From: a virus
DNA length: 64,000 nt
Strand: one strand, 5' to 3'
IMG/VR virus record: IMGVR_UViG_3300045988_016718
The position numbers were made by a program, and so were the translations under genes. Below are positions 7,377-58,281 of the stretch, in pieces; position 1 is the first letter of the stretch; the number at the start of each line of letters is the position of its first letter. The notes beneath the pieces were generated by a model that was given only the letters and a program-made list of their open reading frames with translations, was not told the DNA's origin and searched no databases.

Positions 7377-7381
7377 AATAG

Positions 7382-7416
7382 ACCCTGCCTGCATTAAGCA
7401 GGTGGGGTTTTCTTTT
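7382..7416 (+). terminator. Intrinsic terminator
   Basis: Hairpin ACCCTGCCTGC-ATTAA-GCAGGTGGGGT followed by TTTTCTTTT. Confidence 0.7.
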
Positions 7417-7426
7417 ATACATAGTT

Positions 7427-7984: not shown

Positions 7985-7985
7985 T

Positions 7986-13392: not shown

Positions 13393-16300
13393 ATGAGAAG
13401 ATTTAATACTATAATAGAATCAGCCAACCCTCCTGGTATAAATCAATTATGGATTGATAAGAAGAAGCTAAGATACTTCACAGAAGGCAAATGGCATTTA
13501 CTAGGTGATGGTGGAAGTAATCCACCTGAAATCAGTGACCATGATACTTGGATTATTGATGGAGAAGATACTGGTAAACCCACAAGAGGAGAAGAAGGTA
13601 GTAAGGGAGATAATGGTCTCACACCATTTATAGGTACTAATAAACACTGGTGGATAGGAACTACTGATACTGGTGTTGTTGCAGAAGGAACTGATGGTAT
13701 AGATGGTGATAATGGATTAACTCCTCAACTTAGAGTAACTGATACTGCCGTTGAGTATAGCTATGATGGTATTACATGGACAGAACTGATACCTAAGAGT
13801 GATTTTGTTGTTAAAAATGAAATTACTAATAGTCCTGATGAAGAGGACTTAACATCTATAAATGATAAGCTCAAACTAAAAAATAAAGCTTACTCACCAG
13901 CTGAATTTAGTGGACTTGGAAGAATATATCTTAGGAAAAACATAACAGGAAATAAGAACATACTTACTCAAGACATAATTAATACTGGTAATACTATTTA
14001 TATTATTCAATATGATTATGATTTAAATGGAGCTACTATTACTATTCCTGATAATTGTGTATTACAATTTGATGGCGGTAGTATATCTAATGGTACTATA
14101 ATTGGTAATAATACTATTATTGACGCACTTAATTCCTTACATATATTTAATAATATTAATGCTAATGGAACATATAAAAGTGAATGTTATGTAGATTGGT
14201 TTGGAGCTATACCTTATTATGAGGATATAGATAATCCTATTAATTCAGATGCATCTATTCAATTAGCTTTAAATAGTGGATTTAGAGAAATTAGATTTAA
14301 TGTTGGTATTTATTATATTGCTAATACTTTATTATTAGATTCTGTTAAACATATAGTATTATCAGGAAATGCTACTACATCTTTTGCTTCTGCATATGGC
14401 ATTAAATATGATAAACCAATAGTTGATTCCACAATAATTAGTACTAAAAATGATATTGATTTGTTACATATAGCTATTACTAAATATAGAAATAGTAATT
14501 ATGATAATAAAGTATCCTTATTTATTGAAGGTGGTTGTTTTGATGTTTCTAAAATTGATTATAATAGTTCTGTTATAAAGTTTATTGGTAAAGATTGTAC
14601 AATATGGAGTCATAAAATTAATACTACTATATATGGTCCTTTAAGTGGAATAACTATTAATGACACAATTGATTTAAATACTAAAGGTATTGGGATTGAA
14701 TATACAGAAGAATCAGATGCTACTGGTTACTTTTATATTGCTACAATTGATTCTGATATTAGAGGATTTACTTATGGCATAAAAAATAGTATGCTTGAAA
14801 GTTCTCATATAACATCTTTTGATATAAAGGGTCTTATTGATGGATGTGTTACTCATATAGATATGGGTGTTGGTATAGAATATTCAAGGATAACATCTAC
14901 TATTCAGTCAAGACGTTATTTTGATGATAATGCTAAAACTTATTGTATTATAGGTAAGTTTAATATTACATATGTTGATGCTATTTTTTGGGACTTAAAT
15001 CTTACTGATAAAGATAAGAAAACTAATAGATATGCTTTCTTTATAAATAAAGATGATACAATTACAGTTGGAAAGAATTGTGAAAATCTCCTTCTTAGTT
15101 ATGTTGATGGTTATATTTATAATGCTCATAAAGATTTTAATGATAATGTTATTTTAACTAGAGGTACATTAACTTATGGTAGAAATAGAAAATCATATTT
15201 TGGTTTATTAGATAATGTATATCAGTTTCATAAAGATTATACTTATGAATTAAGTGGGACTATATCACAAGAAGATATACCTTGGGGTAATCCATTTGCA
15301 TTAGATGGTATTTGTATTCAACCTAAAAAGAATGTAAATGGTAGTAATATTAAATTTACTATAACTAATATTGTTAGAGGAACTATTAATAGGTTTTTAG
15401 TTACTGTTCCTATGATTATTACTGCTAATAATTATTCTTTTAAAGAAATTATAATTACTTCTAAACTTAATGGTAATATTGTAAAAAGTTTAACTTTTGA
15501 TAATAGTGAAACTCCAACTATATATGCTCAACCTTTTATTGCTGTATTTAGTAATGACTTATTTACAGTAGAAACTGATACTCTTGAAGTAGAACTTAAT
15601 AATCTTCAAATGACAGATGCTAATATAAATAAGCAATTATTTGTTATGTTTGAAGGTAGTTCTACTTATAATGATTATAAGCAAATAGGTACTCGTGAAT
15701 ATACTGAAATAAGTACTGGTGGTACATTTAAATTACATGATAATATTTTAAGATATTTTGGTGGTTCTACTCCATTTCTAAGGAATGTTACTGATGGTTC
15801 TAATATATATAGTACAGCATATATGCCTATATACTTTGACGCTCAAGTAATATTAGATTTAATTGCTGCAAATCCAACTGCTTATGGCGAAGGAGCTAGA
15901 TTTAATCTTTATACTGGAAATAATGAATATAGGATGCTTATTTATTCTAAACGTTTAAATATGCTTCTTACTCCTGAAGGTTATACATATTTTAAAAGTA
16001 GACAAGGAAACACAGAATCAAGACCAGTATTAACTGCAAGAGATGTTGGATTTGTTTATTATGATACAACTATTAGTAGACCTATACTTTGGACAGGAAG
16101 TAGATGGTTTGATTGGACAACTGCTAATATGTCTACTCTTACATTTACAGGTGCAGTAGAAGCTACATATAATGGTTCTGCTCCTGTAACAGTTAATATA
16201 CCAACAGGTGGTGGTGGAACTACAAATTATGAGGACTTATCAAATAAACCAAAGATTGGAGATGTAGAATTAGTTGGTACTAAAACATTAGTACAACTAG

Positions 16301-16413
16301 GTATTCAACCAGCAGGTGATTATGCCACAGAGACTTATGTAACTGAACAAATAACTGCTGCAATAGGTACAATAAACACAGCACTTGATAATATAAATGG
16401 AGAGGTGATATAA
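13393..16413 (+). CDS. Tail fibre / tailspike (beta-helix-like receptor-binding protein)
   Basis: The 1006-aa ORF has collagen-like GEEGSKGDNGLTP and GTDGIDGDNGLTP. It also has the beta-helix-like segment IYIIQYDYDLNGATITIPDNCVLQFDGGSISNGTIIGNNTII and C-terminal YEDLSNKPKI. Confidence 0.75.
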   Translation: MRRFNTIIESANPPGINQLWIDKKKLRYFTEGKWHLLGDGGSNPPEISDHDTWIIDGEDTGKPTRGEEGSKGDNGLTPFIGTNKHWWIGTTDTGVVAEGTDGIDGDNGLTPQLRVTDTAVEYSYDGITWTELIPKSDFVVKNEITNSPDEEDLTSINDKLKLKNKAYSPAEFSGLGRIYLRKNITGNKNILTQDIINTGNTIYIIQYDYDLNGATITIPDNCVLQFDGGSISNGTIIGNNTIIDALNSLHIFNNINANGTYKSECYVDWFGAIPYYEDIDNPINSDASIQLALNSGFREIRFNVGIYYIANTLLLDSVKHIVLSGNATTSFASAYGIKYDKPIVDSTIISTKNDIDLLHIAITKYRNSNYDNKVSLFIEGGCFDVSKIDYNSSVIKFIGKDCTIWSHKINTTIYGPLSGITINDTIDLNTKGIGIEYTEESDATGYFYIATIDSDIRGFTYGIKNSMLESSHITSFDIKGLIDGCVTHIDMGVGIEYSRITSTIQSRRYFDDNAKTYCIIGKFNITYVDAIFWDLNLTDKDKKTNRYAFFINKDDTITVGKNCENLLLSYVDGYIYNAHKDFNDNVILTRGTLTYGRNRKSYFGLLDNVYQFHKDYTYELSGTISQEDIPWGNPFALDGICIQPKKNVNGSNIKFTITNIVRGTINRFLVTVPMIITANNYSFKEIIITSKLNGNIVKSLTFDNSETPTIYAQPFIAVFSNDLFTVETDTLEVELNNLQMTDANINKQLFVMFEGSSTYNDYKQIGTREYTEISTGGTFKLHDNILRYFGGSTPFLRNVTDGSNIYSTAYMPIYFDAQVILDLIAANPTAYGEGARFNLYTGNNEYRMLIYSKRLNMLLTPEGYTYFKSRQGNTESRPVLTARDVGFVYYDTTISRPILWTGSRWFDWTTANMSTLTFTGAVEATYNGSAPVTVNIPTGGGGTTNYEDLSNKPKIGDVELVGTKTLVQLGIQPAGDYATETYVTEQITAAIGTINTALDNINGEVI

Positions 16414-27119: not shown

Positions 27120-28136
27120 ATGGCTGTTTTTTCTATTAATCAAGTAAGACAACTTTATGTTGCAAAAGAACTAAAGACAGGTAATGCTTTGCTAGCTACT
27201 GATAAAGCTGGTTCTATTTTACCTAAGGCAGATACAGCTAAGACTACCCTGTACCTACAGTACATGAGTCCCGCAGGAATTGTATCAAGTGATAAAATTA
27301 ACATAGCTAATGTGATGTATGCAAAAGCAACTGATGCTTCTGCAATGGCTCACAAACTAGCTAGGTATGAATTAACTCTTGATGCTGATGTTTCTGCAAC
27401 TCCAGTAGCAGGTCAGGAATACATTCTTAGACTGGCATTCAGACATTACATTGGTCTGGGTGAAAATGACCAACAGTTCAAGTATGGTTTTGTAAAGGCT
27501 CAAGGCACTATGACTGCTTCTGACTTTTACAAGAAAATGGCACTATCTCTATTTGACAATGTTAAGAGAGATGTAACTCCTTTGGTCAACATTTATGTTG
27601 CCACAACATCAGCTGAAACTCTCATTACTGATGAGACTAAGGAAGCTGACCTGACAGGTACTTACACTAAGATTGTCATTGAAGAAGTAGAACAGGATTG
27701 GATTCTTGGTAGAATGCCTCAAGCATTTATGCCTTTTGCAGTTCAACCTACTACTATCATTGTAGATGGTGATGAGAGAATTTGGGGTAAAGTAGATAAG
27801 GCTACTCCTACTAAGAGTGTTCTGAATGGTCACAATATTGCTGACCTTGAGTACTTCTGTCATGGTTTCAGAGGTGATGAATACAGGGGTATGGGTTATC
27901 CTAACAACCTGATTACAGAGTACTTGGTAGACCCAACACTTGAGTACAATACAATTGATATTCACTATGCTTATGTAGGCTCAAATGAGTCAGTACAGAA
28001 GTCAGAAAAGGATATTACCATTGTAGTTCCTAAGGTTGGGGAAGATAATGCTACAGCAAATAAGCTGACTAATGACATTATTGCTGCTATCAATACAGCT
28101 TCAGGCTTAAGTATTGCTACTCTGCCTACTGTTTAA
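27120..28136 (+). CDS. Abundant-looking virion protein (auxiliary capsid / decoration candidate)
   Basis: 338-aa ORF followed by its own strong terminator. Confidence 0.75.
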   Translation: MAVFSINQVRQLYVAKELKTGNALLATDKAGSILPKADTAKTTLYLQYMSPAGIVSSDKINIANVMYAKATDASAMAHKLARYELTLDADVSATPVAGQEYILRLAFRHYIGLGENDQQFKYGFVKAQGTMTASDFYKKMALSLFDNVKRDVTPLVNIYVATTSAETLITDETKEADLTGTYTKIVIEEVEQDWILGRMPQAFMPFAVQPTTIIVDGDERIWGKVDKATPTKSVLNGHNIADLEYFCHGFRGDEYRGMGYPNNLITEYLVDPTLEYNTIDIHYAYVGSNESVQKSEKDITIVVPKVGEDNATANKLTNDIIAAINTASGLSIATLPTV

Positions 28137-28151: not shown

Positions 28152-28184
28152 AGGGAGAGTCTAAGGCTCTCCCTTATTTGTTTT
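28152..28184 (+). terminator. Intrinsic terminator
   Basis: Hairpin AGGGAGAG-TCTAAGG-CTCTCCCT followed by TATTTGTTTT. Confidence 0.75.
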
Positions 28185-28202: not shown

Positions 28203-28757
28203 ATGGTGGAATTTAATAAACTACTAGTAATCCCCTATAACAAAGGTATTTACCTTGATGTACAAGTAATGGACTTGCCATATTTCACTGATGTGTATCT
28301 GGATTCCATAACTATAGATACACAAGATACCTTTAAACCTGATGGCATTAGTAAAACCCCAGCATATACACTTAAGATAGAAGATAATGTAAAGTCTCTA
28401 CAAATGACCATTAAGGATAGTGACTTATTGGTTCCAACTGTAGAAGGTACAATGTTCTTTGTCTATGTAACTGTAAAAGGAACTCCTGCTGCTGATACTC
28501 CATGTGGGTTAGATGAACCTACTGTACTTGCAGTATGTGTGGACTCTTACAGAATATACAGAAAAGGTATAGAGTATATACAGGAAACTTACAACAACTG
28601 TGTGGTTCCTAAACACTTTATAGACTTCATACTAAGGTATAAGGCATTTGAGATGTGTTTAAAGACAAGGGACTTTCCACTAGCCATCACTTATTGGAAG
28701 GGGTTTTGGAGAACAATAACCAAGTCTGAATCATCTAAATGCACATGTTATGGATGA
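28203..28757 (+). CDS. Virion-module hypothetical protein
   Basis: 184-aa ORF with an ATGGATGA overlap into the next gene. Confidence 0.7.
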   Translation: MVEFNKLLVIPYNKGIYLDVQVMDLPYFTDVYLDSITIDTQDTFKPDGISKTPAYTLKIEDNVKSLQMTIKDSDLLVPTVEGTMFFVYVTVKGTPAADTPCGLDEPTVLAVCVDSYRIYRKGIEYIQETYNNCVVPKHFIDFILRYKAFEMCLKTRDFPLAITYWKGFWRTITKSESSKCTCYG

Positions 28758-29967
28758 AATACTATATGAAACTTTGAATAAGTACTACAAGGCATTGTCT
28801 GTAGTTGGGTACAAGAGAGACCCAGTAGTCAACAAGTTACTGGTTATGCAGTACATACAGGAGACACTAAGCAATGAGTACAGGTACTATTTAACTAAAA
28901 ATGATATAAAACTTATGCAAGATTTACTTTACCAATTCATTGGTTCTACTTGTGAAATATCTTTCCCTACTAATTGCAAGTGCTGCTGTGGTACAGGCTC
29001 ATTTGACCCTTCTATTACTGGGTTCAGTCTTGTACCAAGTACTACTAACTATGTAGGGTCACAGAGTGTCACATTCACTGGAGCCAGATTCAATATTAGT
29101 AAAGGTACTCATATAAAGGAAGACAGCTTAAAGATATATTGGGGAACAGAGGTATTAGCAGAGGGACTCAATGTAGACCTTAGTACTGTAATATTTAATA
29201 GTCCTATTGTCAAGGAGCTGGTTGAAGGTCAGACATATACTGCCAAAGCATCAGTTCTTGATGAAGAAGGTAATGAGTATTTCTCAAATACTATGACTAT
29301 AACTTGTACAGCAGCACCTATTACTAATCCTACTATAACTAACTTCAAGTTAGTTCCTTCAACTACTACATATACTGGAACACAAGATGTTACATTTACT
29401 GGAGCTACCTTTACAATTAATAAAGGTACTAAGTTTAAGGAAGATAGTCTTGAGATTATATGGGGTACAAATGAAGTAATGGGCACAGGATTAAGTACTG
29501 CTGGTTCATCAATAACCTTTAGTCCTTCTATCACAAAGAATCTTGTGGAAGGTAATACATATACAGCTAAAGCAAGTATACAGGATATTGATGGTAACAA
29601 GTACTATAGTAACACATTTACTATTACAGTAAAGACACCTGTTAACCCTACATATATGTACACAGGTAATCAAGCTGCTAAGCCTACTGTTGATGAAATC
29701 AAGGCAGGAACTAAGTATGATTACAACAGTGTGAAGCAATTCAACACTCCTGCTATGATGCTTAAGACTATTTGGGTATGTATACCTGCAACAGTTACTC
29801 TTGTAAGCATGGAGAATGTTAACTTTAGTGGTGACTATATATACAATATAGACACTGGTAGAGACTATATGAAGCATGAGGATGTAACTATAGATGGTGT
29901 AGCATATAAGCTTACTTATCTGACTACAATTGCTAGTCATAATCCTTATAAGACAATAGTAAGATAA
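28750..29967 (+). CDS. Structural protein with two tandem Ig-like repeats
   Basis: The 405-aa ORF has two aligned repeats of about 100 aa, at aa 87-186 and aa 194-294 (FxLVPSTTxYxGxQxVTFTGA.F.I.KGT..KEDSL.I.WGT...LVEG.TYTAKAS). Confidence 0.75.
   Translation: MDEILYETLNKYYKALSVVGYKRDPVVNKLLVMQYIQETLSNEYRYYLTKNDIKLMQDLLYQFIGSTCEISFPTNCKCCCGTGSFDPSITGFSLVPSTTNYVGSQSVTFTGARFNISKGTHIKEDSLKIYWGTEVLAEGLNVDLSTVIFNSPIVKELVEGQTYTAKASVLDEEGNEYFSNTMTITCTAAPITNPTITNFKLVPSTTTYTGTQDVTFTGATFTINKGTKFKEDSLEIIWGTNEVMGTGLSTAGSSITFSPSITKNLVEGNTYTAKASIQDIDGNKYYSNTFTITVKTPVNPTYMYTGNQAAKPTVDEIKAGTKYDYNSVKQFNTPAMMLKTIWVCIPATVTLVSMENVNFSGDYIYNIDTGRDYMKHEDVTIDGVAYKLTYLTTIASHNPYKTIVR
29008..29631 (+). repeat. Intragenic tandem duplication (2 x about 300 nt, Ig-like domain)
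   Basis: The repeat units lie at 29008-29307 and 29329-29631. This was seen at the protein level. Confidence 0.7.
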
Positions 29968-29986: not shown

Positions 29987-30481
29987 ATGGAATTTAATGG
30001 AATAATGACACCTCTGGTAGCTATAGATTCAGCTACCAGTAAGCTAAAACCATCACTTGAAGCTACATATGGACCTTATGCCAGTATTGATGCAGCATAT
30101 GCTGCTATAGTTGAAGCATTTGAGTCTGGTGGTATACCAGTAGGTCTGACAGTAGGTATTCAAACAGGAAGTAACATTGTTGATTACTGGTTTAATGGTG
30201 GAACAGCTAAAGCTAATTTAGTGAAGAAATATCCTGAAGGTGGTTCAGGTGGGGGATATACCCTATTCACTACTCCTTCTGTTGCAGAAGATAGCACAAC
30301 TTATCTGAATACTAACTTTGCAGATGCTGTTAAAGGAGACCATGTAGTTGACACTACTACTGGTCATGTGTATATTAAGTACTCTGATACAGGTTGGACT
30401 AAACTTGTGGGTACTATTCTTGCTGCATCTCCTTCACCAAATGCAAGTATAGTGGCAGCAGCAATCATGTCATACAAATAA
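29987..30481 (+). CDS. Hypothetical virion protein
   Basis: 164-aa Ala/Gly-rich ORF. Confidence 0.7.
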   Translation: MEFNGIMTPLVAIDSATSKLKPSLEATYGPYASIDAAYAAIVEAFESGGIPVGLTVGIQTGSNIVDYWFNGGTAKANLVKKYPEGGSGGGYTLFTTPSVAEDSTTYLNTNFADAVKGDHVVDTTTGHVYIKYSDTGWTKLVGTILAASPSPNASIVAAAIMSYK

Positions 30482-30491: not shown

Positions 30492-33400
30492 ATGTCAGAA
30501 ACTATTGGAATTAGATATTGCATACCACAAGTTGTCTTTGATAAGAAACCTTCTGGTAATCAAACCTTTGCTTTATTTTACAGGAGAGGTGATAATCCAA
30601 GCAGGTCTTGGATTAAGAAGACAGACACATATGTGGTTGATAAATATGGAAAGAATACCAATAATGTTTACCTTGACAGCTTAGTAGAAGATACAGACTA
30701 TCAGTTCAGTCTAGCAGAGTTCCCTTATGAAGATGAACAGACAGCAGCTAAGAATGGTGCTATCTTTTCCTTTCATACAGCAATTAATATGACTGCTGGG
30801 GACAGTCCTTATGTGAATAAGATATTGATGCCGGGTCAAACTTTTGACTGGTATTATAGTGGTACTAAAGCCAATTCAATGCCTACAAGTAGTGCAACTG
30901 CTTGGTACTATCAAGCTACCAATAACAGGACTAATGAGGGAGAGAATTATTATTCACTTGAAGTAGGGGGAGAAGTAGCTTGGAAACAGGCTACTTCTGC
31001 TGACAATGAACTTGAAACATACTCAGGTTATTACTGTAATACTGGTAACTACATCAAGTTACCTAACACTTATATTAAGAATCCCGGTGGTTTCATTGCA
31101 GGTAGAATCTATGCTGATGATATTAGAGGTTTACTAACAGTATCTTTCTATCTTGAAGAGGGTCATAAGGATGCAGCAATTGTAACTTGTGAGGCTCTAT
31201 ATAACAACACAGGTAGTGAGCAAGCTCCTATCTATACACAGATACCTATTGAGCAAGCTAATGATGCAACAGCTGCAATATCATTCTCAATTTATGTTGG
31301 GGAAGATGGAGTACTTCACTCAAGAAAGGTTAGAAAAAGTAGTGTGGCTAATGGTGGTGAAATAACCTTGAATGAGGATACAGCATTACCTAATACTATG
31401 GTTGGTGGCATAACTAATTTATCAACTAACAAATGGTATACTGCCCAGATAAGTCATGGCTTAGGTACAGTACATATCTATACAGCTAAAGGTCCTGAAG
31501 AACTACAATCATCTTCTCAATATTACACTGAGGTCTACACTTGTGAAGGTCCGGGTCAACCTGCTGAATCAAGTATTGCTAATGCAGGAGACCCTGCTAC
31601 AGATGGACTTGGTATTGGGTTTGGTTATAATCCTGAAGTACTTCAATCAATATTTGATGTTATAGGAACTGAACAGTATGTAACCAAGGGTCTTATAGTT
31701 AACCATATTGGTATGTTATCTAATGAATCTATTACAGACTTCAACAAGATTTCAGCTGGTTATCTATATATTCCTTGCTTAGGTTTCTACCCTCAAGGTG
31801 GTACAATCAGTAAGGCTAATTGTCTGTACTTGCAGAACTCAAGTATGACTAACTTATTCAAGGATGATACTATTGGAGAAGATGGTCAAGTTGAATCTGT
31901 AGGTAAAGTATCTTTCATAATTGACCCTGCTATTGGTGGTACTGATAGTCCAAAACTTAATTCAGGTACTTATAAGATAGTACTACAGAGTTACTCACAA
32001 TATACTTCAAATACTTCATTCACTAACATGGATGGTATTGTGGTACAGACTCAAAAGGAACAAGTAACAAATACAGGATATGTCATTGACTTTGAACAAG
32101 ACTTTGATTCTGCTGTTACTGCCTTTAGGTCTAAATTCTATACCAAGCATGGTAACTGGGGTGGATATAATGGTGGTGTAAACTCTAACCTTGTGTATGC
32201 AAGTAGAGCTGAAAAGAGCTTGATACTTGAAGCACATGGTGACTATTATCCTGAAAGCGGTCAAGTATGGGGTGTAGGAAAAGAAGCATGGGTAACAGAA
32301 GCTGGTAAACAGTACACAGGTTATGGAGAAAACATGTACTACTATGCAGAGAATGATGCTAGGAAAGGTACTACTCCTTTCAAACAAAGAGTAGGTTGTA
32401 CACTTAGAACAGTTGATTACTTTGCTTATGGTAAGTACACAGTAAGAATGGCTATCCCTGAATTAAAGGCTGGTCAGGATAACTGGGGATTATGTCCTGC
32501 ATTATGGTTCTTCCATTATCAGGAGTTTGGTGAAGGTTCTACTGGTTATAACAAGTGGATGTCTTCTACTAATCCTGTAGGTAGAATCTATAACAAGGAA
32601 GGTGATGCAGAGAATGGATTCTATTGTGTTGTCAATAATGAAATTGACATGGAGTTACCTTCAAATGATACACAGGACTTCTTCCCTACTGCTGCTGTTG
32701 GTGGTACAAGATATACTCCTTGGGACTTTGTTAAGTGTGCATACTTTGACCCTATAACTACTAACCCTAAGGCTACAGTATCTACTGCTACTAATCCTCC
32801 ATATAGAATAGGTATTGTTGATGATAATACTCTTCCTTATGAAGATGTTGGTAGATTCATACTGAAAGACCCTGCTAAGCCTAATGACAGAGCAAGTTGG
32901 GAACAAGAAAGAGAAACTTTTGTTCAGACTAATTATCCTAACTTCTGTAATTGTAAGTTTAATAACTGGCAAGGTGAATACAGTTCAGGTAATGGATGGG
33001 AATCAAGACAGGATTATCTACCTGCAAAGGTTAATGGTGCTATGCCTGCTGATGCTGTAGCAACAGCTCAAGCAAACAACATGGACTACTATAAGAATGA
33101 TACTACTTATAAAGAGGAGTATGTAGCTTATAAGACAGCACTTGCTGATGAAAGAGTAGCACCTAAAGGTTATGCTGATGGTAGATTCCATGACTGGACT
33201 ATGGTATGGTATCCTAACCACACTGAATTATGGGTTGATGGAGTCAAGATAGAAGAGAACTGGGGATTTGTTCCTTTTAACTGTATGCACTTTGTAATAG
33301 GTATATGGTTTCCTACTCTTGGTGTCAAGAAGATTGATGGAGTATGGAAGGTTCTTGACTATGATAAAAAGACTCCTGTAAATAATGTAGCTACTCTTGA

Positions 33401-33584
33401 AAGTACAGGTACATGGGCTGGACTTAATGCTAACTTTGAAGCATGGCATCTAAAGATAAGCAAGGTAAAGTATGAACCTTTAACTACAGAGGAGCTTAAT
33501 GCTAATACAGCTAATAGACCTACACCTGAATTACTCTATGATGGTGAATCCTTCCCAGAGTCAGGTATGAGGTTTATTATCTAA
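30492..33584 (+). CDS. Tail fibre protein with C-terminal GH16-like (ConA-fold) glycanase domain, paralogue 1
   Basis: The 1030-aa ORF has a C-terminal domain from about 32085. It contains WGLCPALWFFHYQE, NNEIDMELPS (ExDxE, 32640-32654) and FHDWTMVWYPNHTELWVDG. These are the GH16 patterns WPAxW / ExDxxE / FH.Y..eW.p..i.wyvDG. Confidence 0.7.
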   Translation: MSETIGIRYCIPQVVFDKKPSGNQTFALFYRRGDNPSRSWIKKTDTYVVDKYGKNTNNVYLDSLVEDTDYQFSLAEFPYEDEQTAAKNGAIFSFHTAINMTAGDSPYVNKILMPGQTFDWYYSGTKANSMPTSSATAWYYQATNNRTNEGENYYSLEVGGEVAWKQATSADNELETYSGYYCNTGNYIKLPNTYIKNPGGFIAGRIYADDIRGLLTVSFYLEEGHKDAAIVTCEALYNNTGSEQAPIYTQIPIEQANDATAAISFSIYVGEDGVLHSRKVRKSSVANGGEITLNEDTALPNTMVGGITNLSTNKWYTAQISHGLGTVHIYTAKGPEELQSSSQYYTEVYTCEGPGQPAESSIANAGDPATDGLGIGFGYNPEVLQSIFDVIGTEQYVTKGLIVNHIGMLSNESITDFNKISAGYLYIPCLGFYPQGGTISKANCLYLQNSSMTNLFKDDTIGEDGQVESVGKVSFIIDPAIGGTDSPKLNSGTYKIVLQSYSQYTSNTSFTNMDGIVVQTQKEQVTNTGYVIDFEQDFDSAVTAFRSKFYTKHGNWGGYNGGVNSNLVYASRAEKSLILEAHGDYYPESGQVWGVGKEAWVTEAGKQYTGYGENMYYYAENDARKGTTPFKQRVGCTLRTVDYFAYGKYTVRMAIPELKAGQDNWGLCPALWFFHYQEFGEGSTGYNKWMSSTNPVGRIYNKEGDAENGFYCVVNNEIDMELPSNDTQDFFPTAAVGGTRYTPWDFVKCAYFDPITTNPKATVSTATNPPYRIGIVDDNTLPYEDVGRFILKDPAKPNDRASWEQERETFVQTNYPNFCNCKFNNWQGEYSSGNGWESRQDYLPAKVNGAMPADAVATAQANNMDYYKNDTTYKEEYVAYKTALADERVAPKGYADGRFHDWTMVWYPNHTELWVDGVKIEENWGFVPFNCMHFVIGIWFPTLGVKKIDGVWKVLDYDKKTPVNNVATLESTGTWAGLNANFEAWHLKISKVKYEPLTTEELNANTANRPTPELLYDGESFPESGMRFII

Positions 33585-33596
33585 ATAAATTAAGAT

Positions 33597-36500
33597 ATGG
33601 CAGTTCCTACATTTAATGAATATACTTATAAGATAAGTTACAAGGTAGGCTCAAGTGATGAGATTATCCTTAGTGAGGAACTTGTTATTCTAGTGGCTTT
33701 GACAAGTGAAGTAATTGATGGTAATGTTGTACAAGTACAGAATCCAAACTATGATTACTTCATGAATACTCTAAGTGTAAGTGTGGCTCCTGTTGATGGG
33801 GCTACACTTTTCATTAGAAGAAACAAGATAATGGATGGTGAAATTGTAGTAGCAGAAGAGAAACTGGTGCATCAAGGTGCATTTAGTTTTCCTGATTATG
33901 ATACTAGGCAATCACTGGTCATTACTGATACAGAAGTTAATGGGAGTACCTCACATACCATACTTGTCCAAATACTTAATGTAGTTGGAGAAGAGAGAAT
34001 ACCTTGCAATTACACATTACCCAAACTAGAGTTTGCAGCACAGATTACTGATAGCCAACATGTGGATATACAATATAAACAGGTTGGTTCTACAGATTAT
34101 ATCACTTTAGGTACTAATGTTATTGTGCCTCCTACAGGTAAAATCAATAATATTAGCTTGGGACAATTACCTGATGATACAGAGTATCTCTTAAGGATAT
34201 ATCATTATGAAATGGATGAAGAGAAATTCTTCCTGTTTCATACTAATCTTATACCTACTCTTGGTATTAATCCCATTATAGGTAAAGTAGAATGGAATGG
34301 TAGAATAGTATTACTTGATGCTCCTAATGTAAAGGCAAGAATGTATCCAAGTCCTGATAAACTGGATTGGATGTTTCCTATGGATTACAGCACTAAGTCA
34401 TTTGATAATATCTTATCTTCCTTGTGGACATCTGATGATTACTTAGGTAAGAATGAGAACTATCACTTTGAGATGAGAACCAGTACTGATAATCCAGAAG
34501 AAACTTATATAGGTTGTGCTATCAACAAAGACCATTATATTGGATTACCTTTTGATTATGTAAATGACAAGCTACCAGACCAAGGTGCATCAATGAACAT
34601 ATTCTATAAGGACTTGTTTACTGTATCTAATCCTGCTACTGATAGAAATGCAATCATAATGAAGTTCTATGCAGACCCTACTCATGTAGGTCCATTAAAG
34701 CTCTTAGGGATAAACCATAACAGTGAACATGATAATACCAATTACTTAGGGTTTAATTTTAACAAGGCTGGAGATTGTAGAGAGGTAAATGTATTTGGTA
34801 AGGTAATGTTGACTAGTTCTACTGGTGACCCTCTTATTACTAGTGGCAAATGGTATACATTACTACTTGTGACTAATGGTGATAAGATAAATTACCTATC
34901 AATTAGTGACTACAGTAATTATAGTCAGACAACTATACCTATTAATGCCGGAGCACATGTTGGTAATGTAGACCTTAAGAATAAGTTATACGATGCTGGT
35001 AGGCTGCCTGTGACCATAGAACTTACTTATGATTGCACACAATATACTTCTGAAATTGGTCTATGTATAGATTATGCTACTTATCAATACATAGAAGACA
35101 ATGACACTAATAACCAAATTGAGAAGGGTAACAGTATCTATAAATCTCCTGAATATGGTACAGGCAAAAAAATTACTGTTACTATACCTAATGATGCTGC
35201 ATATGGAATAGCAGTTGGTTATTCTTTAGGTTTTCTAAAGGGTGGAACTACTGTGGCTGGCAAAGTAACTATCACAGACTTTAAGGTTAATGGTGTCAGT
35301 ATATTCAGTGATTTAACTAACTATCCTTTTAAGGTTGATGAGGCTGCAAGTGCTTATATAAGTGGTACTAAGACTGACATGATTTGGGCTAAGACTGGTG
35401 ATTCATTGCCTACTCCTATTGGTGGTACAGTATTTGAAGATGTAGAACTTAATCAGAACATAGAGCTTAATGCCAGACTATTTGTAGGATGTCCTGTTCA
35501 ATCAGGTGATATGACTAATGCAAGTTATGTTGTATCAAGGATTGGTCTACATAAGTCTACAATAACTGGTACAGATAGTTGGGACACTCCTTATCAATAT
35601 ATAGACCCTACAGTCATGGAAGCATTGGGTGCTGGCTATAAGAAGATGCCTAAACTTAAGTGCACAAATGATAATGGTACTGTAACTGTTATTCCAACAT
35701 CAGAGATGACTGAAATGAAGGATGCTACTGTGAGATTCTTACTTGAAGGATTGCCAATAGGTAAAACAAGAATAGAGGTAGAATCTGGTGAGGATATTCT
35801 ATCTTCTGTGTCAAGGGAAATCAAGAGTGTTAAACTTACTCCTGCACAGGCTGATTATGACATAAACTTTGAAGGTGATTTTGATGCAGCTGTAACAGAG
35901 TTCAAGAAGAGGTATTATGCCAAGCAGAAAAGGTGGGGTGGAAACATGGGTGGTGGAACTAATGGTAATTTGATATATTTCAACAGAGGACTTAAGTGTC
36001 TTATCCTTGAGCAGCATGGAGATAAATATAGAGGAATTGTTCCTGCTGTAGCTCCTGCTGGTGCTAATGGTTATGGACTACCTGTGGACTTAGTTGAAAA
36101 TCCATTGAATTATATACCTAACACAAGCCAGAGAACCTCAAGAGTTGGTGGTCTTATTCAGTCAGTTGATTATCATCCTTATGGTATGTTTGACTGCTGG
36201 TTTAAGGTACCAAAAGGAATGATAGGTTTAGCAATCTGTCTATGGTATTTCCACTATCAGGAGATATATAACTATGACAAGACATTCAAGTTCTGGACAG
36301 AAACTGGTGTTAAAGGTTATACTTATGCTGATTCTGTAAAGAGTGGCTATGGTGCAACTTGGGTAGTTATCAACAATGAGATTGATATGGAGCTTGGCTC
36401 AGAAAATACACCTTACAGGACAGTAATGAACCCTAATAGTGATACTAGTATTATGTGGTATGTTCCGGGTCTTAGTTATAGACAAGCTATAGGATGTACT

Positions 36501-37193
36501 GCAACTGGTGCTGACTATGGTACATGGATGATTGACTGGGAAGCAAGCAAGGCAGCTATAGATGCTGTTACAGAAACAGACCCACAAAACTCTGCATCCT
36601 ACTTGAGGTCTAATCAGCTTAAATGGGTTAAGATAATGGATACTATTGATGAAGTCAACTATGGTGCTAATGTGAGGTCATGCAGATTCAATAACTGGAT
36701 GAATGAAGCATGGAATGATGGTTGTGGAGTATATGGTACTATTGCTAATTCACAATTAGGTAAGGGAGAACTCTCTGTCAATAATAGAACTCCTTTAGGT
36801 TCTATTGACCCCAAGGCAGTACAACAAGCTGCAAGATATGTAGAACATTACTATGATGATGGACAATATCATAAGTGGTCAATTGACTGGAAAGGGGATT
36901 ACACTGCATTGTATATTGATGATGAACCTATAGCAATATGTAAGGCATTTGTGCCATTCAATCCTATGACAATGCTTGTAGGTTGTTGGTTCCCAAGTGG
37001 TAATGCTTATGATAAGAATGTGTTATTAGGTGAATGGGGAACTTGGTCTGGAGTTCATGCTGATTGGGAAGTAGGACTCATGCAAGTTAAAAGAATCAAG
37101 TTCAAGGCATATACTGAAGAAGAAGCTCCAACTACAGACATGAGATATGATTGTGAAACTTATGCAGAAGATGGATTAAGAGAGATTCTGTAA
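33597..37193 (+). CDS. Tail fibre protein with C-terminal GH16-like glycanase domain, paralogue 2
   Basis: The 1198-aa ORF has a C-terminal domain from about 35860 that aligns with the previous gene. Shared segments are INFEGDFDAAVTEFKKRYY, GLAICLWYFHYQE, NNEIDMELGS (36378-36392) and YHKWSIDWKGDYTALYIDD. Confidence 0.7.
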   Translation: MAVPTFNEYTYKISYKVGSSDEIILSEELVILVALTSEVIDGNVVQVQNPNYDYFMNTLSVSVAPVDGATLFIRRNKIMDGEIVVAEEKLVHQGAFSFPDYDTRQSLVITDTEVNGSTSHTILVQILNVVGEERIPCNYTLPKLEFAAQITDSQHVDIQYKQVGSTDYITLGTNVIVPPTGKINNISLGQLPDDTEYLLRIYHYEMDEEKFFLFHTNLIPTLGINPIIGKVEWNGRIVLLDAPNVKARMYPSPDKLDWMFPMDYSTKSFDNILSSLWTSDDYLGKNENYHFEMRTSTDNPEETYIGCAINKDHYIGLPFDYVNDKLPDQGASMNIFYKDLFTVSNPATDRNAIIMKFYADPTHVGPLKLLGINHNSEHDNTNYLGFNFNKAGDCREVNVFGKVMLTSSTGDPLITSGKWYTLLLVTNGDKINYLSISDYSNYSQTTIPINAGAHVGNVDLKNKLYDAGRLPVTIELTYDCTQYTSEIGLCIDYATYQYIEDNDTNNQIEKGNSIYKSPEYGTGKKITVTIPNDAAYGIAVGYSLGFLKGGTTVAGKVTITDFKVNGVSIFSDLTNYPFKVDEAASAYISGTKTDMIWAKTGDSLPTPIGGTVFEDVELNQNIELNARLFVGCPVQSGDMTNASYVVSRIGLHKSTITGTDSWDTPYQYIDPTVMEALGAGYKKMPKLKCTNDNGTVTVIPTSEMTEMKDATVRFLLEGLPIGKTRIEVESGEDILSSVSREIKSVKLTPAQADYDINFEGDFDAAVTEFKKRYYAKQKRWGGNMGGGTNGNLIYFNRGLKCLILEQHGDKYRGIVPAVAPAGANGYGLPVDLVENPLNYIPNTSQRTSRVGGLIQSVDYHPYGMFDCWFKVPKGMIGLAICLWYFHYQEIYNYDKTFKFWTETGVKGYTYADSVKSGYGATWVVINNEIDMELGSENTPYRTVMNPNSDTSIMWYVPGLSYRQAIGCTATGADYGTWMIDWEASKAAIDAVTETDPQNSASYLRSNQLKWVKIMDTIDEVNYGANVRSCRFNNWMNEAWNDGCGVYGTIANSQLGKGELSVNNRTPLGSIDPKAVQQAARYVEHYYDDGQYHKWSIDWKGDYTALYIDDEPIAICKAFVPFNPMTMLVGCWFPSGNAYDKNVLLGEWGTWSGVHADWEVGLMQVKRIKFKAYTEEEAPTTDMRYDCETYAEDGLREIL

Positions 37194-37286: not shown

Positions 37287-37991
37287 ATGAATACTTACAG
37301 ACAGCTAGTATATATGGTACTTGATGAGCTTAAGGGTTCAGCAGATGACTTCACTTTTACTGAAGACCATGTGATGTTCCTTCTATCAAAGTACAGGGCT
37401 TTCTTGTTAAAGCAAAGATATGCAGACATCAAGAAGCCAATGCCAGAGTCCAATTATCAAACTCTATGTCTTGAGCTTATTGAGGTACCAGCAATAGCTG
37501 GAGTACCTTGTGAAGGTGGTTCATACTTGAGGACTAAAGCCAAGATACCTTTTACTATGAAGGTAGGTAATCCTAAGGTATATCCTGTTGATTACTTCCA
37601 AGGAAGCAACATTACATTTATCAGCAGAGACAGAATGAGATATGTTGGATATAACAAGTTTATGCAGAACATCATTTACTGCACACTTGGTCCTGACAAT
37701 TATCTGTATCTTCAATCAAATAATCCACAGTTCATCTATATGGAAAACATAAGATTTACTGCTGTATTTGAGGATTCAGAAACAGCATCAGAACTTGAAT
37801 GTAATGAGGATGGAAAAATATGTGATACCATAGACAGGACATTTCCAATTGAAGAAGCTCTTGTTCCACCTCTTATTGAACTTGTAGTCAAAGAGTTAAG
37901 ACAAGCTGAATATACACCAGCAGATGAGAAGAATAATGCAAATGATGATTTGGATAATGTAGCAATGACAGCAAACAGGCAGAGTAGATAA
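37287..37991 (+). CDS. Tail/neck structural protein (hypothetical)
   Basis: 234-aa ORF with a TAATG junction to the next gene. Confidence 0.7.
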   Translation: MNTYRQLVYMVLDELKGSADDFTFTEDHVMFLLSKYRAFLLKQRYADIKKPMPESNYQTLCLELIEVPAIAGVPCEGGSYLRTKAKIPFTMKVGNPKVYPVDYFQGSNITFISRDRMRYVGYNKFMQNIIYCTLGPDNYLYLQSNNPQFIYMENIRFTAVFEDSETASELECNEDGKICDTIDRTFPIEEALVPPLIELVVKELRQAEYTPADEKNNANDDLDNVAMTANRQSR

Positions 37992-54246: not shown

Positions 54247-54283
54247 AAAGGGAGATAGAATTAACTATCTCCCTTTTCTTTTT
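54247..54283. terminator. Bidirectional intrinsic terminator between convergent arms
   Basis: Hairpin AAGGGAGATAG-AATTAA-CTATCTCCCTT. It is flanked by an A-tract (AGAAAAAATAAA) on the left and a T-tract (TTCTTTTT) on the right. Confidence 0.8.
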
Positions 54284-57200
54284 ATCTAGCATCCATTTTA
54301 AACCACCTTGCTGGTTGGTCAGGGTCAAGTGCATTAAGTACTTGTTTCCTGAATGGAAGTAAATCAAATATGTATTTTTCAGCTTTGGTGTATCCCTTAT
54401 ATGGTCCAGTCTCAATGACTTCATTATAGCTTTCAGGATAGAACAACTTGATTACATTCCTTAATTTCTTCATTGTAGGAATAATAACAGTTGGGTCATC
54501 AAGTAGCTTAAGAGATTCATCAAGCATTGTAGGACTTGGAAGCATAACACCAATATCACTCTTTAGCCTTAGAGCTGAATATGCAGCCATTCTAAGTACC
54601 CAAGGTTTATCTTCATCATCACCACCTGCTTCTTCAAGCAGACCAAGTAACAATGTAAGACCAATATAGGTTCCTATCTCCATTAATCCCTTTCTGATAT
54701 TACCTTTCTCAAGAGGAGTAAGCCCCTTCCATTGACTGATAATATCAAACTCCGATTGCTTGATGTCCTTATACATTTGCTTCAAGAACCTGTAACCAGT
54801 TTGGTAATAACCCTCTGTATAGTCCTGTAAGTCAAAGTTATATTTACCTCTACCAAATCTATTTAACCATAATGGTCTCATCCAGTCTCTATACATCATA
54901 GCCATTCTACCAACTGCTAGTTGTTTTGCAGCTATTCTGTCCTCACTGTTATATATACCATACAGGTTATTTTCAATACCTCTTACTCTATTTGAGAAAG
55001 CAAGTATATCATCTTGAGTAAACTGACTTCCATCAGCCTTTGTTACACCTTTCTTAAGCTGTAATTTAGCACCCATGTTCTTGTTTTTCCCATCAATAGG
55101 AACTACTTCAAGTGCATTCCAAAGACTAATGTTATTACCATTTGCATCCTTCAATTTGAACCTGTCAGCAAGAGCAATAGCAATCCTGTTTTGTGTCCAA
55201 TGGTCACCGGCTTGAGTAGTGAAGAATATAGCATTTTCTCCTATTAATCTTGTTGCCCAAGTCTTTTTGTTCCAATTCACATTTCTGACACTTTGCTTGT
55301 AGTCCTGTTGAACATTAAACAATTCATCAAATAGTGCAATCTTGCTTGTCTTGATTCTATTACCAATCTCTGCAAGATATGCTGGAAGATGAGTACCATA
55401 TTCCTTATCAGCATAAGCTAATTCCAAGTGATTGAAGAACCTGCCTGATGCAGCTTCAATGTTACTTGTTGCAAAGTTCTGTAACATGTTGGCTGTACCT
55501 GTGAGTAAGCTAAGAGCTGTAGTACTGTAACTTGTCATCTTCATAAGCAAAGCCACTGCCTTATTGGTATCAATCTTACTCTCACCAATAGTGCCACTAT
55601 CCTTCATGTATCTACCATATACTTGCATCTCCATGAATGAATTAAGCTTATCCATGAAGAAAGAGTTACTGCCTTTCTTAGTTAATAGGTTCTTTACTTC
55701 AGCCCCTAATACTTTGAATCCTTCAACTCTTCTTCTATCACCTTCAAGGTCTGCTACTTTCCTTTCAGCAAGCACAAGTCTGCCTACTTCAAGTGTATCA
55801 AGTACTTCATTCATTCTATTGAAATCATTGACCATAGAAGCATAAGCTATCATAGATGATGTAGAGTCAAGAGACAAGTCTCTCATATCCTCAAGTTGTC
55901 TTGTATAATATATGGGTAACTTATTAACTGGATTACCCTCAAAGTCCATTAGTACAGACTTATCATCCTTATATTGTACATCAACATCATCTTCTCTTCT
56001 CACTAAGGTATCCTTCATAGTTTCCCAAAAGTATTTGGCTTTGTTACCACTTCCTAGCATCCTTTGTAAGAAGTCTCTCCTAATCTGTGGTGCCCTATTT
56101 ACTTTGGTATATTCCTGTGGCAGGATATTATCTAACTTAGCCTTGAGGTCCATAATGAACTTGTAATACTCCTTTTGTGCAGAATTAAGGCTTGCAAATG
56201 CCTTGCTCTTGTATTTAGTCATGCTAGGGACAATATTGTTATGTTCGTCCCTGCTACTGTTTTCTGCATACCATATAGCTATTTCCCTTGACCTTTCAAG
56301 TAAGTCCTCACCTTCAGGATTCTCTCCATACTTATTCTTAAGATAATCATTGAACTTTCTCTTTTCAGCCCTATATGTTGCCCAGTCCACAGGTTGTACA
56401 AAGTAACCTGTTGGTACACCATTGGCATCTCTTTCATACATCCAGTCAGTATTCTTGATACCAGCTTTCTCAAGTTTCATAGCAGCATATTCAATATCCT
56501 TTTGCATATTGATAGTATCCTGTCTAGCTTCAAACTTTTGCTTCTTGACTACTTGGTCATAGATTTGTAACATAGGGTCTGAACTGTCAGCCATACTGTC
56601 AAGCCATCTGTCAAAGAAAGTAATGTCTCTGTCCATTGAAGTAACAAGTTCTTCTGCTGTATAAGTCTTTTTGTACTTATCTCTAGCAATAGTGATACTT
56701 AATCCTTCACCAACAAATGGTTTAATAAAATCAGTAAATAATGTCTTACTTACATCATAGAAGTCAGCACTTAAATCCTGTATGATAACAGTATTCTGGT
56801 CAAGAAGATTCCTCAACTTATCCTTGAATCTATTATCACCTTCTGCTGATGCAGCATTCATATCCTTCCTGATTTCAAGTATGATACTACCATAAGATGA
56901 CATATAGTTTCTGATGTTCCTTAATGCAGACATCTTCTCATTGAGAGGTGCATCCATATCCACTACTGTACTTAATCTGCCTTGTAGCTTCTCAAGTACT
57001 CCAAGACTGGTTTGTATATACTTATAAATACCTTCCAGTGCTTGATTTTCTGCAATAGATTGATTCAACTCTTCAATATATGCTTGCTGGGATGCATTAA
57101 AGTCTTCCTTCTTACCATATATCTTCAACCTCTTAAGCTCTTGTTCTATGATTCTATTAAGTAGATTGACATCTCTGTCAACCTTAGAAGTAAGACTGTA

Positions 57201-58274
57201 GAACTGTCTGTTATATTGAGGACTGTTAATCCTTAGATTAAACTTGCCTGTAGTAATATCCTGTGCTATCTGATTAGCCTCATTCTGTGCCTGTTGTACA
57301 ATAACATCAATATCAGAACCATTGAATCTTGAGAAGAAATTTTTTAGAGAGGTTAGGAACCTCTGGAACAAACTGGGACTTGGAGAATAAATGTCATTGT
57401 TGACAAGGGCTTTAGCTACCATTTTACCTAGAGCTTCTTCAGCTAACATTCTCAAGTCTCCATTATACTTGGCTGAATAGTTATCATAGTCAGTACCAAG
57501 TATTCTCCTTAGTGCTTCTTCATTAGTTAATGAGTTGATTGCTCTTGTCTTTATAGGATTCTCTCCCATAGCTTCAATAGCAAAGTGAGCAAACTCTTCA
57601 GGAAGAGCAGCTTGTCCTTCTTCGCCCTTAGCAAGTCTGATTACTTGTCTAAGTCCTGTAGCAGCATCCATTGCTACACTTAAGTCCATAACACCATTAA
57701 CACCTAGTCTTTCTTCAAGACTAGTGAGTGCACCAATACCAATACCCCATGAATTAAGTAAGCCCTCAAGCTTCTTGTTCAGACTATAATTAACAGCAAG
57801 TCTTTGTGGCTCACTATTCCTCTTTTCCCTATTAGGTTTAACAATAATAGTAGCACCACTGTTCTTGCCATCATAAGCTTCCTCTACTGTGGCAAAGTAC
57901 TTGTCTCTAAATGGACTGTTGTTATTGAACCTTACAGCCTGTTCCTGCAATGCAGATACATGACCATAGTCTTTAGGTTGTAATACCACCTTACCATTTT
58001 GTGTATGTCCTATCTCCCTATTAAGCATAGAAAGAGTCTCACTCTCATCTTTCAGCTTGGATATACCAATCTTGTTAAGTAAGTCATCAAATAGTGGCTC
58101 ACCATATTTATCATGCCTTACACTAGGGAACTTCTTTTGGAAGTCCACACTCTTAGCTCTAGTGTACCAGAACATAGCATCTTTCCTGTTGCCAAAGAAA
58201 TTCTCTAATTGAGAGTAGAGAGGGGATACTATCCCCTCAACTACCTCTGGTCTTAATTTACATTTTTTTGCCAT
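54282..58274 (-). CDS. Giant virion-associated protein downstream of the vRNAP gene
   Basis: About 1330 aa from the ATG at 58274 (MAKKCKLRPE), 7 nt after the upstream stop. The track start at 58322 overlaps the upstream gene. No motif was recognised. Confidence 0.7.
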   Translation of the reverse strand: MAKKCKLRPEVVEGIVSPLYSQLENFFGNRKDAMFWYTRAKSVDFQKKFPSVRHDKYGEPLFDDLLNKIGISKLKDESETLSMLNREIGHTQNGKVVLQPKDYGHVSALQEQAVRFNNNSPFRDKYFATVEEAYDGKNSGATIIVKPNREKRNSEPQRLAVNYSLNKKLEGLLNSWGIGIGALTSLEERLGVNGVMDLSVAMDAATGLRQVIRLAKGEEGQAALPEEFAHFAIEAMGENPIKTRAINSLTNEEALRRILGTDYDNYSAKYNGDLRMLAEEALGKMVAKALVNNDIYSPSPSLFQRFLTSLKNFFSRFNGSDIDVIVQQAQNEANQIAQDITTGKFNLRINSPQYNRQFYSLTSKVDRDVNLLNRIIEQELKRLKIYGKKEDFNASQQAYIEELNQSIAENQALEGIYKYIQTSLGVLEKLQGRLSTVVDMDAPLNEKMSALRNIRNYMSSYGSIILEIRKDMNAASAEGDNRFKDKLRNLLDQNTVIIQDLSADFYDVSKTLFTDFIKPFVGEGLSITIARDKYKKTYTAEELVTSMDRDITFFDRWLDSMADSSDPMLQIYDQVVKKQKFEARQDTINMQKDIEYAAMKLEKAGIKNTDWMYERDANGVPTGYFVQPVDWATYRAEKRKFNDYLKNKYGENPEGEDLLERSREIAIWYAENSSRDEHNNIVPSMTKYKSKAFASLNSAQKEYYKFIMDLKAKLDNILPQEYTKVNRAPQIRRDFLQRMLGSGNKAKYFWETMKDTLVRREDDVDVQYKDDKSVLMDFEGNPVNKLPIYYTRQLEDMRDLSLDSTSSMIAYASMVNDFNRMNEVLDTLEVGRLVLAERKVADLEGDRRRVEGFKVLGAEVKNLLTKKGSNSFFMDKLNSFMEMQVYGRYMKDSGTIGESKIDTNKAVALLMKMTSYSTTALSLLTGTANMLQNFATSNIEAASGRFFNHLELAYADKEYGTHLPAYLAEIGNRIKTSKIALFDELFNVQQDYKQSVRNVNWNKKTWATRLIGENAIFFTTQAGDHWTQNRIAIALADRFKLKDANGNNISLWNALEVVPIDGKNKNMGAKLQLKKGVTKADGSQFTQDDILAFSNRVRGIENNLYGIYNSEDRIAAKQLAVGRMAMMYRDWMRPLWLNRFGRGKYNFDLQDYTEGYYQTGYRFLKQMYKDIKQSEFDIISQWKGLTPLEKGNIRKGLMEIGTYIGLTLLLGLLEEAGGDDEDKPWVLRMAAYSALRLKSDIGVMLPSPTMLDESLKLLDDPTVIIPTMKKLRNVIKLFYPESYNEVIETGPYKGYTKAEKYIFDLLPFRKQVLNALDPDQPARWFKMDAR

Positions 58275-58281
58275 AATATTA

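Follow-up and report, generated by a model that had tools for sequence, protein, structure and literature searches.

Classical phage tailspike depolymerases are trimeric proteins with a right-handed β-helix fold. For glycoside hydrolase family 16 (GH16, clan GH-B), we found no biochemically characterised phage member in the literature, nor any characterised crassvirus glycanase, and three papers in which GH16 appears alongside phage depolymerases name it in reference lists or as background. The endo-β-1,3/1,4-glucanase of PBCV-1 was, in 2019, the only characterised viral GH16 enzyme (PMC6827312); a dbCAN survey reported GH16 as the only non-lysozyme glycoside hydrolase in pig crAss-like phages, with no follow-up (PMC12053484), and Crassvirales infecting Bacteroides cellulosilyticus WH2 share tail-spike proteins with glycoside-hydrolase domains, which are proposed host determinants (PMC10028833). 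Here we analyse two tandem open reading frames, ORF1 and ORF2, in a 64,000-nucleotide (nt) stretch of viral DNA (IMG/VR record IMGVR_UViG_3300045988_016718; hereafter the window), each of which ends in a GH16-type domain (Table 1). With a probability of about 0.6, we read them as the products of an ancient gene duplication: multi-domain proteins from the structural module of a Steigviridae-like crassvirus, which would form a tail-module pair of GH16 glycanases acting on a host surface polysaccharide. Phage structural proteins with glycanase domains, including proteins with GH16 names in crAss-like genomes, are already present in databases and papers, and the finding extends this known biology.

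The nearest characterised enzymes are the GH16 subfamily 21 lichenases (Bacillus licheniformis 1gbg, 3d6e, 3i4i), with which the window domains share the β-jelly-roll, the E-I-D-x-E strand residue for residue, the −1 subsite aromatic residue and the +1 subsite Trp. However, the window domains are more than twice as long (~500 vs ~215 amino acids, aa), contain long insertions, show ~10% identity in structural alignments, have Asn-Asn instead of Trp-Asp before the nucleophile, and are fused to 520–740 aa of structural-type β-domains. The PBCV-1 enzyme is also virus-encoded, but it belongs to a eukaryotic algal virus, is nearest to GH16_3 on the bulged branch of the family and has no virion appendage fusion. 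Classical tailspike depolymerases resemble the window proteins in the role proposed for the latter, cleavage of the host's surface polysaccharide by an enzyme carried on the virion; the window proteins, however, lack the β-helix and combine a predicted jelly-roll catalytic fold with a string of globular β-domains. The tail-spikes of the B. cellulosilyticus WH2 crassviruses are likewise encoded by two adjacent structural genes with polysaccharide-degrading domains but are not homologous to the window pair; Kehishuvirus 'tikkala', which was in the phage collection searched, gave no match to ORF1 or ORF2. The likely functional analogue is the tail-fibre apparatus of ΦcrAss001 (gp22 in the THA2-THB hub; gp23–gp26, including a 'hydrolase' and a 'hyaluronidase/CHAP' protein), a set of large appendage proteins with enzyme domains on a Steigviridae tail whose hub and ring genes are orthologous to those of the window. 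The fibre proteins themselves show no sequence similarity to ORF1 and ORF2, belong to another enzyme family, and are encoded after the portal gene, whereas the window pair lies between THB and R2. Members of the same family as the window domains are found under automatically annotated names only: A0A8S5V7B4, '(1-3,1-4)-beta-D-glucan 4-glucanohydrolase' of CrAss-like virus sp. ctUXy6 (BFVD, E = 1e-51); XCD08255.1, 'glycosyl hydrolases family 16 protein' of Dulem virus 42, where the arrangement is also tandem; and the 'putative glycosyl hydrolase' of VP93-like vibriophages. The motif is conserved in them. Those of Vibrio and Pseudomonas phages occur in single copy, and their identity is only ~25% and limited to a portion of the domain.

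That both proteins end in a GH16-type domain, as the original prediction made from the sequence had proposed, is supported in mutual agreement by the Pfam scores of relatives, by the comparison of family profiles with the Protein Data Bank (PDB) and by Foldseek searches of the structural models. All ten relatives scanned exceeded the Pfam GH16 cut-off (24–38 bits, best 37.6), while the window proteins lie just below it, and PF00722 was matched by 29 of the 37 more distant, shorter family members (best E = 9.9e-23). An exhaustive profile search yielded 496 representative clusters, 264 of them at E ≤ 1e-10. Single-sequence PDB searches of both domains returned nothing meaningful. Family profiles, searched against PDB sequences, matched mainly GH16 enzymes, with E = 4e-4 for profile A1, 2.7e-5 for A4 and 1e-16 for A5, the latter with lichenases as its best matches; profiles A4 and A5 aligned to each other at a probability of 100% (hhalign, E = 5e-67). 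In Foldseek searches of the PDB with the AlphaFold models, the top 23 matches of ORF1 and the top 24 of ORF2 were GH16 structures, as were 49/50 and 48/50 of the top 50, with a best E of 1e-8 and the highest TM-scores (target), up to 0.78, to lichenases. These matches included lichenases, laminarinases, carrageenases, porphyranases, and Bacteroides GH16 enzymes acting on mixed-linkage glucan and on O-glycans. The profile search and structure prediction suggested along with the original prediction have therefore both led to GH16, the former through relatives and family profiles and the latter directly. We regard it as practically certain that both proteins end in a genuine GH16 β-jelly-roll, though a divergent and enlarged one. 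The insertions that follow its catalytic strand (ORF1 aa ~728–818 and ~846–875) occur only in the crass lineage and are lacking even in other family members.

The active site could be located by alignment. The family E-I-D-I-E was aligned on E105-I-D107-I-E109 of 1gbg (profile A5 vs PDB), and the ORF1 segment VVNNEIDMELPS falls on the same columns in a second profile step (hhalign). In Bacillus lichenases, E105 is the nucleophile and E109 the general acid/base. Because of this alignment and these lichenase roles, we assign E717/D719/E721 of ORF1 and E928/D930/E932 of ORF2 as putative catalytic residues. In ORF1, nucleophile, helper and acid/base would be E717, D719 and E721, respectively, and W672 and W975 would form the −1 and +1 sugar platforms; E928, D930, E932, W883 and W1150 would be the ORF2 equivalents. 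The positions aligned with these two Trp residues, the −1 aromatic and the +1 Trp, are named among the key residues (PMC6827312). In both models, the motif lies inside a long β-strand (709–721 in ORF1 and 922–932 in ORF2) predicted with moderate to good confidence.

The E-x-D-x-E sequence originally singled out as the catalytic motif thus coincides with the lichenase triad, and its coordinates in both genes proved exact. The catalytic Glu residues, on whose conservation the original prediction had been made to depend, are kept in all homologues: EIDxE was found in 40/40 homologues retrieved and is invariant in alignments of 27 and 31 sequences, as are W672/W883 and W975/W1150, and N[NH]E[IV]D[ILM]E is present in every complete copy across the roughly 40 loci collected from IMG/VR and elsewhere. 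We consider catalytic competence of the two domains very probable. An opposite reading, in which they are lectin-like, receptor-binding pseudo-enzymes that bind glycans and do not cleave them, would fit the frequent use of ConA-like jelly-rolls as phage adhesin domains, the LamG/ConA-like proteins that follow the first BFVD match, the presence of a GH16 pseudo-glucanase among the structural matches (4wzf, Rv0315), and N715/N716 in the place of the lichenase Trp before the nucleophile. It is nevertheless hard to explain without catalysis how the E-x-D-x-E motif and both subsite Trp residues are kept across sequences of otherwise only 25–35% identity, and we find loss of activity distinctly unlikely.

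The primary split within GH16 separates a non-bulged EXDXE branch from a bulged EXDXXE branch (PMC6827312). The motif in the window proteins would place them on the side of lichenases, XTH and CRH enzymes, and not on that of laminarinases, agarases and GH16_3 O-glycanases, and the domain is most likely a retaining endo-β-glycanase of this non-bulged branch. The same branch includes XET and CRH-type transglycosylases (PMC6827312), and the proteins might on that account mainly remodel a glycan rather than depolymerise it. With the closest sequence and structure matches being hydrolytic lichenases, and with no known role of transglycosylation in phage entry, this is very improbable.

ORF1 and ORF2 are intact and lie on the same strand with a gap of 12 nt. 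Residues 518–1030 of ORF1 align with 742–1198 of ORF2 at 28% identity (BLASTP, E = 1e-42), far beyond chance, so the claim of two tandem paralogues at 30492–37193 with alignable C-terminal ~450–500 residues holds. All peptides quoted in its support were found: the (W/C)PALW-type strand (GLCPALWFFHYQE in one protein and GLAICLWYFHYQE in the other), NNEIDMEL, and the terminal block (FHDWTMVWYPNHTELWVDG and YHKWSIDWKGDYTALYIDD). The N-terminal parts had been described as diverged; they are diverged yet detectably homologous, because BLASTP also aligns ORF1 3–225 with ORF2 133–363 (23% identity, E = 4e-11).

When orthologues are compared, conservation is seen in the N-terminal module and in the GH16 domain, and the central region varies far more than either. 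For ORF1, identity among close orthologues is 51–68% in aa 251–500 against 84–93% in the flanks; for ORF2, identity among orthologues is 30–54% in aa 351–650 against 73–93% in the GH16 domain. This pattern suggests a layout of N-terminal attachment, central targeting and conserved catalytic modules: the N-terminal β-sandwich module would probably attach the protein to the tail-fibre or hub apparatus, and the fast-evolving LamG/CBM-like central region would probably serve glycan targeting. The LamG-like nature of the central segments, part of the original prediction, is weakly supported by marginal or sub-threshold Laminin_G_2/3 matches at aa ~216–316 in two homologues, by BFVD ranks 2–6 (after a crass homologue), which are LamG/ConA-like phage proteins with low TM-scores, and by PDB Foldseek rank 24, a laminin LG structure also with a low TM-score; the window proteins themselves gave no such profile match. 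The FN3-like segments proposed with them lack profile support, and FN3 was rejected, the sole match of this kind being IL17R_fnIII at E = 0.25.

AlphaFold2 models of the full proteins reached a predicted local distance difference test (pLDDT) score of 79.1 and a predicted TM-score (pTM) of 0.74 for ORF1, and 80.3 and 0.69 for ORF2. Both are all-β, multi-domain strings of globular domains in which long helices and fibrous segments are absent, and the Foldseek structural matches of these monomers include neither a β-helix nor a fibre fold. The term 'fibre' used in the original prediction is therefore not supported, given globular models, no fibrous fold matched and sequences unlike those of the ΦcrAss001 fibre proteins. 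On the Foldseek matches of both models, a β-helix tailspike architecture was also rejected.

By its gene content, the window comes from a Steigviridae-like crassvirus, a crAss-like phage of the same type as ΦcrAss001. Terminase, portal and major head protein are named among its proteins (PHROGs), and a 338-aa protein at 27120–28136 has 65% identity to ΦcrAss001 gp36 (AUX), with Bacteroides crassviruses as its best relatives. Blastp against the ΦcrAss001 proteins together with Pfam gave the gene order AUX (gp36), THA, THB, a 164-aa ORF, ORF1, ORF2, R2 (gp40), gp42, R1 (gp43) and muzzle (gp44). It is at the THA2-THB hubs that the tail fibres of ΦcrAss001 dock (PMC10172136). Nothing lies between THB and R2 in that phage, which has no homologue of the 164-aa ORF, ORF1 or ORF2, and for this reason we take ORF1 and ORF2 to be a lineage-specific insertion in the tail-hub/ring gene block. 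The pair has the same position, in the tail structural module, in three related loci (L003, L004 and L007). Association of ORF1 and ORF2 with the tail is likely, and gene position suggests that they may be displayed on the virion.

The proteins could alternatively decorate the capsid as head-fibre-like appendages. ΦcrAss001 has two head-fibre proteins thought to add binding specificities (PMC10172136), and the ORF1 and ORF2 genes lie a short way downstream of the gene for the capsid auxiliary protein; their immediate neighbours, however, are the tail-hub (THA, THB) and ring genes, and ORF1 and ORF2 show no similarity to the N-terminal anchors of gp21 or gp29, a gp21-like N-terminus being present instead on a 1006-aa ORF after the portal. 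We give a capsid location little credence and retain the tail as the probable site. The gp21–gp26 fibre/hydrolase block that follows the portal in ΦcrAss001 (~11 kb) is reduced here to this 1006-aa mosaic gene and a 325-aa gene, and ORF1 and ORF2 may functionally replace distal fibre proteins of the ΦcrAss001 type.

Table 1. Features of the GH16 gene pair and of its neighbours (coordinates in the window)
Feature	Coordinates	Strand	Remarks
ORF1, 1030 aa	30492..33584	+	β-sandwich module at the N-terminus (conserved), central β-domains (variable), GH16 domain at the C-terminus
ORF1 N-terminal module (aa 1–225)	30492..31166	+	homologous to ORF2 aa 133–363, conserved in orthologues; candidate virion-attachment module
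ORF1 variable central region (aa ~251–500)	31242..31991	+	LamG/CBM-like; candidate specificity module
ORF1 GH16 domain (aa ~522–1030)	32055..33581	+	~500 aa vs ~215 aa in lichenases; lineage-specific insertions after catalytic strand
ORF1 W672 (invariant)	32505..32507	+	aligned with −1 subsite aromatic platform, 1gbg F92; ORF2 W883 (nt 36243–36245)
ORF1 catalytic strand E717-I-D719-M-E721	32640..32654	+	EIDME, aa 717–721; equivalent to 1gbg E105/D107/E109; non-bulged EXDXE
ORF1 W975 (invariant), GTWAG motif	33414..33416	+	aligned with +1 subsite Trp, 1gbg W192; ORF2 W1150 (nt 37044–37046)
ORF2, 1198 aa	33597..37193	+	ORF1 paralogue; extra ~130-aa N-terminal β-domain, longer central region
ORF2 variable central region (aa ~351–650)	34647..35546	+	from orthologue identity comparison
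ORF2 GH16 domain (aa ~742–1198)	35820..37190	+
ORF2 catalytic strand E928-I-D930-M-E932	36378..36392	+	EIDME, aa 928–932; same alignments as ORF1
Tail hub protein A (ΦcrAss001 gp38 homologue)	28203..28757	+	fibre-docking hub; crAss_THA, E = 6e-54
Tail hub protein B homologue (ΦcrAss001 gp39)	28750..29967	+	crAss_THB match in N-terminal 75–100 aa, then ~300-aa extension
164-aa ORF	29987..30481	+	no family or structure match; candidate adaptor/assembly partner
Tail ring protein R2 (gp40 homologue)	37287..37991	+	downstream boundary of insertion

The arrangement of the 164-aa gene followed by copy 1 and copy 2 recurs in L003, L004, L007, L010, L014 and L015, and in fragmented form in Dulem virus 42. 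The copy-1 GH16 domains of these pair-carrying relatives have only 40–48% identity to that of ORF1. In a neighbour-joining tree, copy-1 and copy-2 GH16 domains form separate clades, with identities of 69–76% within the copy-2 clade (40–42% for L014), 40–65% within the copy-1 clade and 28–35% between clades. On the evidence of this tree, the duplication is old, having taken place before at least five phage lineages diverged; that both copies have been kept argues for non-redundant roles. A single copy is found in some crass-like contigs (L011, L012, L016 and L029), and ~25 non-crass phage contigs carry one family member each. Among 50,697 phage records, megablast returned no match to the 6.7-kb region. 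The phage collection searched contained no cultured members of the clade, and the metagenomic Dulem virus 42 was the sole match. Relatives with 99% identity are widespread, P0001 standing for 483 member sequences.

The close relative L006 (logan:SRR32969554_299; 95–98% nucleotide identity) lacks window positions 30741–31262 and 32182–35865. Its hybrid protein P0025 joins the N-terminal part of ORF1 to the GH16 domain of ORF2, exactly at the start of both GH16 domains, with ~10 nt of microhomology between the paralogues at the junction; the observation comes from one contig of one sample. An assembly chimera was considered and judged less likely than a real deletion, the ~10 nt shared being too short for a k-mer join.

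Several related loci differ in further respects. In L014 (8393–15385) and L015 (8402–15394), the paralogue in second position is a giant open frame that continues beyond the locus end and has a length of at least 2331 aa; its GH16 domain is much more divergent, with 40–42% identity to other copy-2 domains, and carries the motif NNEVDLE or NNEIDLE. In the lemur-gut, crass-like Dulem virus 42 (L002, PP511876; 8101–17366), the GH16 genes appear split under the standard code into pieces of 706, 175 and 1355 aa, which could result from stop-codon reassignment, frameshifts or sequencing errors. The distant relative L004 has an extra 1100-aa gene with a Polysacc_deac_3 match (6191–9493) just upstream of a 161-aa gene and the GH16 pair, and this locus is possibly a cassette site for appendage proteins that act on glycans.

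The 164-aa protein has no Pfam, PHROG, NCBIfam or PDB match, ΦcrAss001 virion chains included. Its homologue was detected in pair-carrying loci and in single-copy L016 (L002, L003, L004, L007, L008, L010 and L014–L016), and in the window, L003 and L004 the gene is directly 5' of the GH16 pair. It is possibly an adaptor or assembly factor. The tail hub protein B homologue has 405 aa here vs 114 aa in ΦcrAss001, its extension consisting of two tandem ~95-aa Ig/TIG-like repeats followed by one more domain at the C-terminus; in this lineage, the hub at which fibres dock apparently bears an appendage of its own. A hairpin resembling a strong terminator (28152–28174; 10-bp stem with 6 G-C pairs and a T-rich tail) lies between the capsid auxiliary gene and the tail-hub genes. 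Promoter and terminator scans, which were overall at chance level, found no comparable terminator between the hub genes, ORF1 and ORF2, and this terminator-free stretch is consistent with their co-transcription.

Elsewhere in the window, the 1006-aa ORF after the portal (13393–16413) is a mosaic whose aa 1–44 resemble the anchor of the ΦcrAss001 head-fibre protein gp21 and whose other segments resemble gp22, gp23 and gp24. G+C content is only 25% at 14001–16000 vs ~36% elsewhere in the window, which suggests that this segment was recently acquired or is fast-evolving. The sign of the GC skew flips at ~54 kb (~54200), at the same place as the switch from plus- to minus-strand coding; large minus-strand ORFs occupy 54282–58322 and 58282–63975.

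In the mechanism that we propose, the enzymes would cleave a β-linked surface polysaccharide of the Bacteroidales host, allowing the short tail to reach the outer membrane. A Bacteroides host is suggested by the relatives of the phage, and an envelope glycan of the host is, by a small measure, the substrate we favour. Each of the two enzymes would have its own linkage or glycan as target, and the separate retention of both copies ever since the ancient duplication makes two distinct glycans plausible.

It should be noted that several observations weigh against this proposal. ORF1 and ORF2 reach only 19.1 and 20.2 bits with Pfam PF00722, short of the gathering cut-off of 22 and with only the C-terminal third of the profile covered, and PHROGs and NCBIfam assign neither protein to a family. 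An invariant Asn (N715) replaces the lichenase Trp before the nucleophile (1gbg W103). The N-terminal 520–740 aa (521 aa in ORF1, 741 aa in ORF2) show no similarity to the ΦcrAss001 fibre proteins gp21–gp26 or to any PDB chain, and the architecture, as modelled, is unlike that of classical trimeric β-helix depolymerases. The single hybrid gene of L006 indicates that two enzymes may not be essential. Finally, the GH16 domain is the most conserved part of the proteins and the central region the most variable, which argues mildly against recognition of a hypervariable capsule by the catalytic cleft.

The same contrast between a well-conserved catalytic domain and varying central domains would also fit GH16 enzymes that are active on gut glycans, such as mucin O-glycans or dietary mixed-linkage β-glucan, and not on the host envelope, serving movement or adherence in mucus or auxiliary metabolism. 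Such a function would agree with lichenases as the closest structures and with the gut Bacteroidales enzymes acting on mucin O-glycans and mixed-linkage glucan among the structural matches (6t2n, 5nbo, 7kr6). The genes are, however, placed inside the tail-hub/ring block, with the enzyme domains joined to large N-terminal regions of structural type; the GH16_3 enzymes active on mucin are on the bulged EXDXXE branch, whereas the proteins described here have EXDXE; and the Vibrio and Pseudomonas phage homologues do not come from mucosal settings. We consider a gut-glycan function unlikely and continue to favour cleavage of a host surface polysaccharide. A more far-reaching version of the latter, which we put forward as tentative and rather doubtful, combines an enlarged phage-borne GH16 subfamily of ~500 representative clusters, a two-enzyme tail apparatus replacing the gp23–gp26 fibres, a conserved jelly-roll cutting a conserved β-linked backbone of a Bacteroidales glycan, and a hypervariable CBM-like module setting strain specificity.

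The hosts and receptors of most crAss-like phages are still to be found, and ORF1 and ORF2 are expressible targets with named candidate catalytic residues that could reveal a surface or gut glycan attacked by a prevalent lineage, and possibly its host. The combination of a conserved enzyme with a variable middle suggests that the catalytic domain is not where specificity resides, and host-range prediction and engineering would benefit from such a layout. If the two-enzyme tail apparatus is real, ORF1 and ORF2 would be host-range determinants of a prevalent uncultured crassvirus lineage and would become the first characterised phage GH16 depolymerases.

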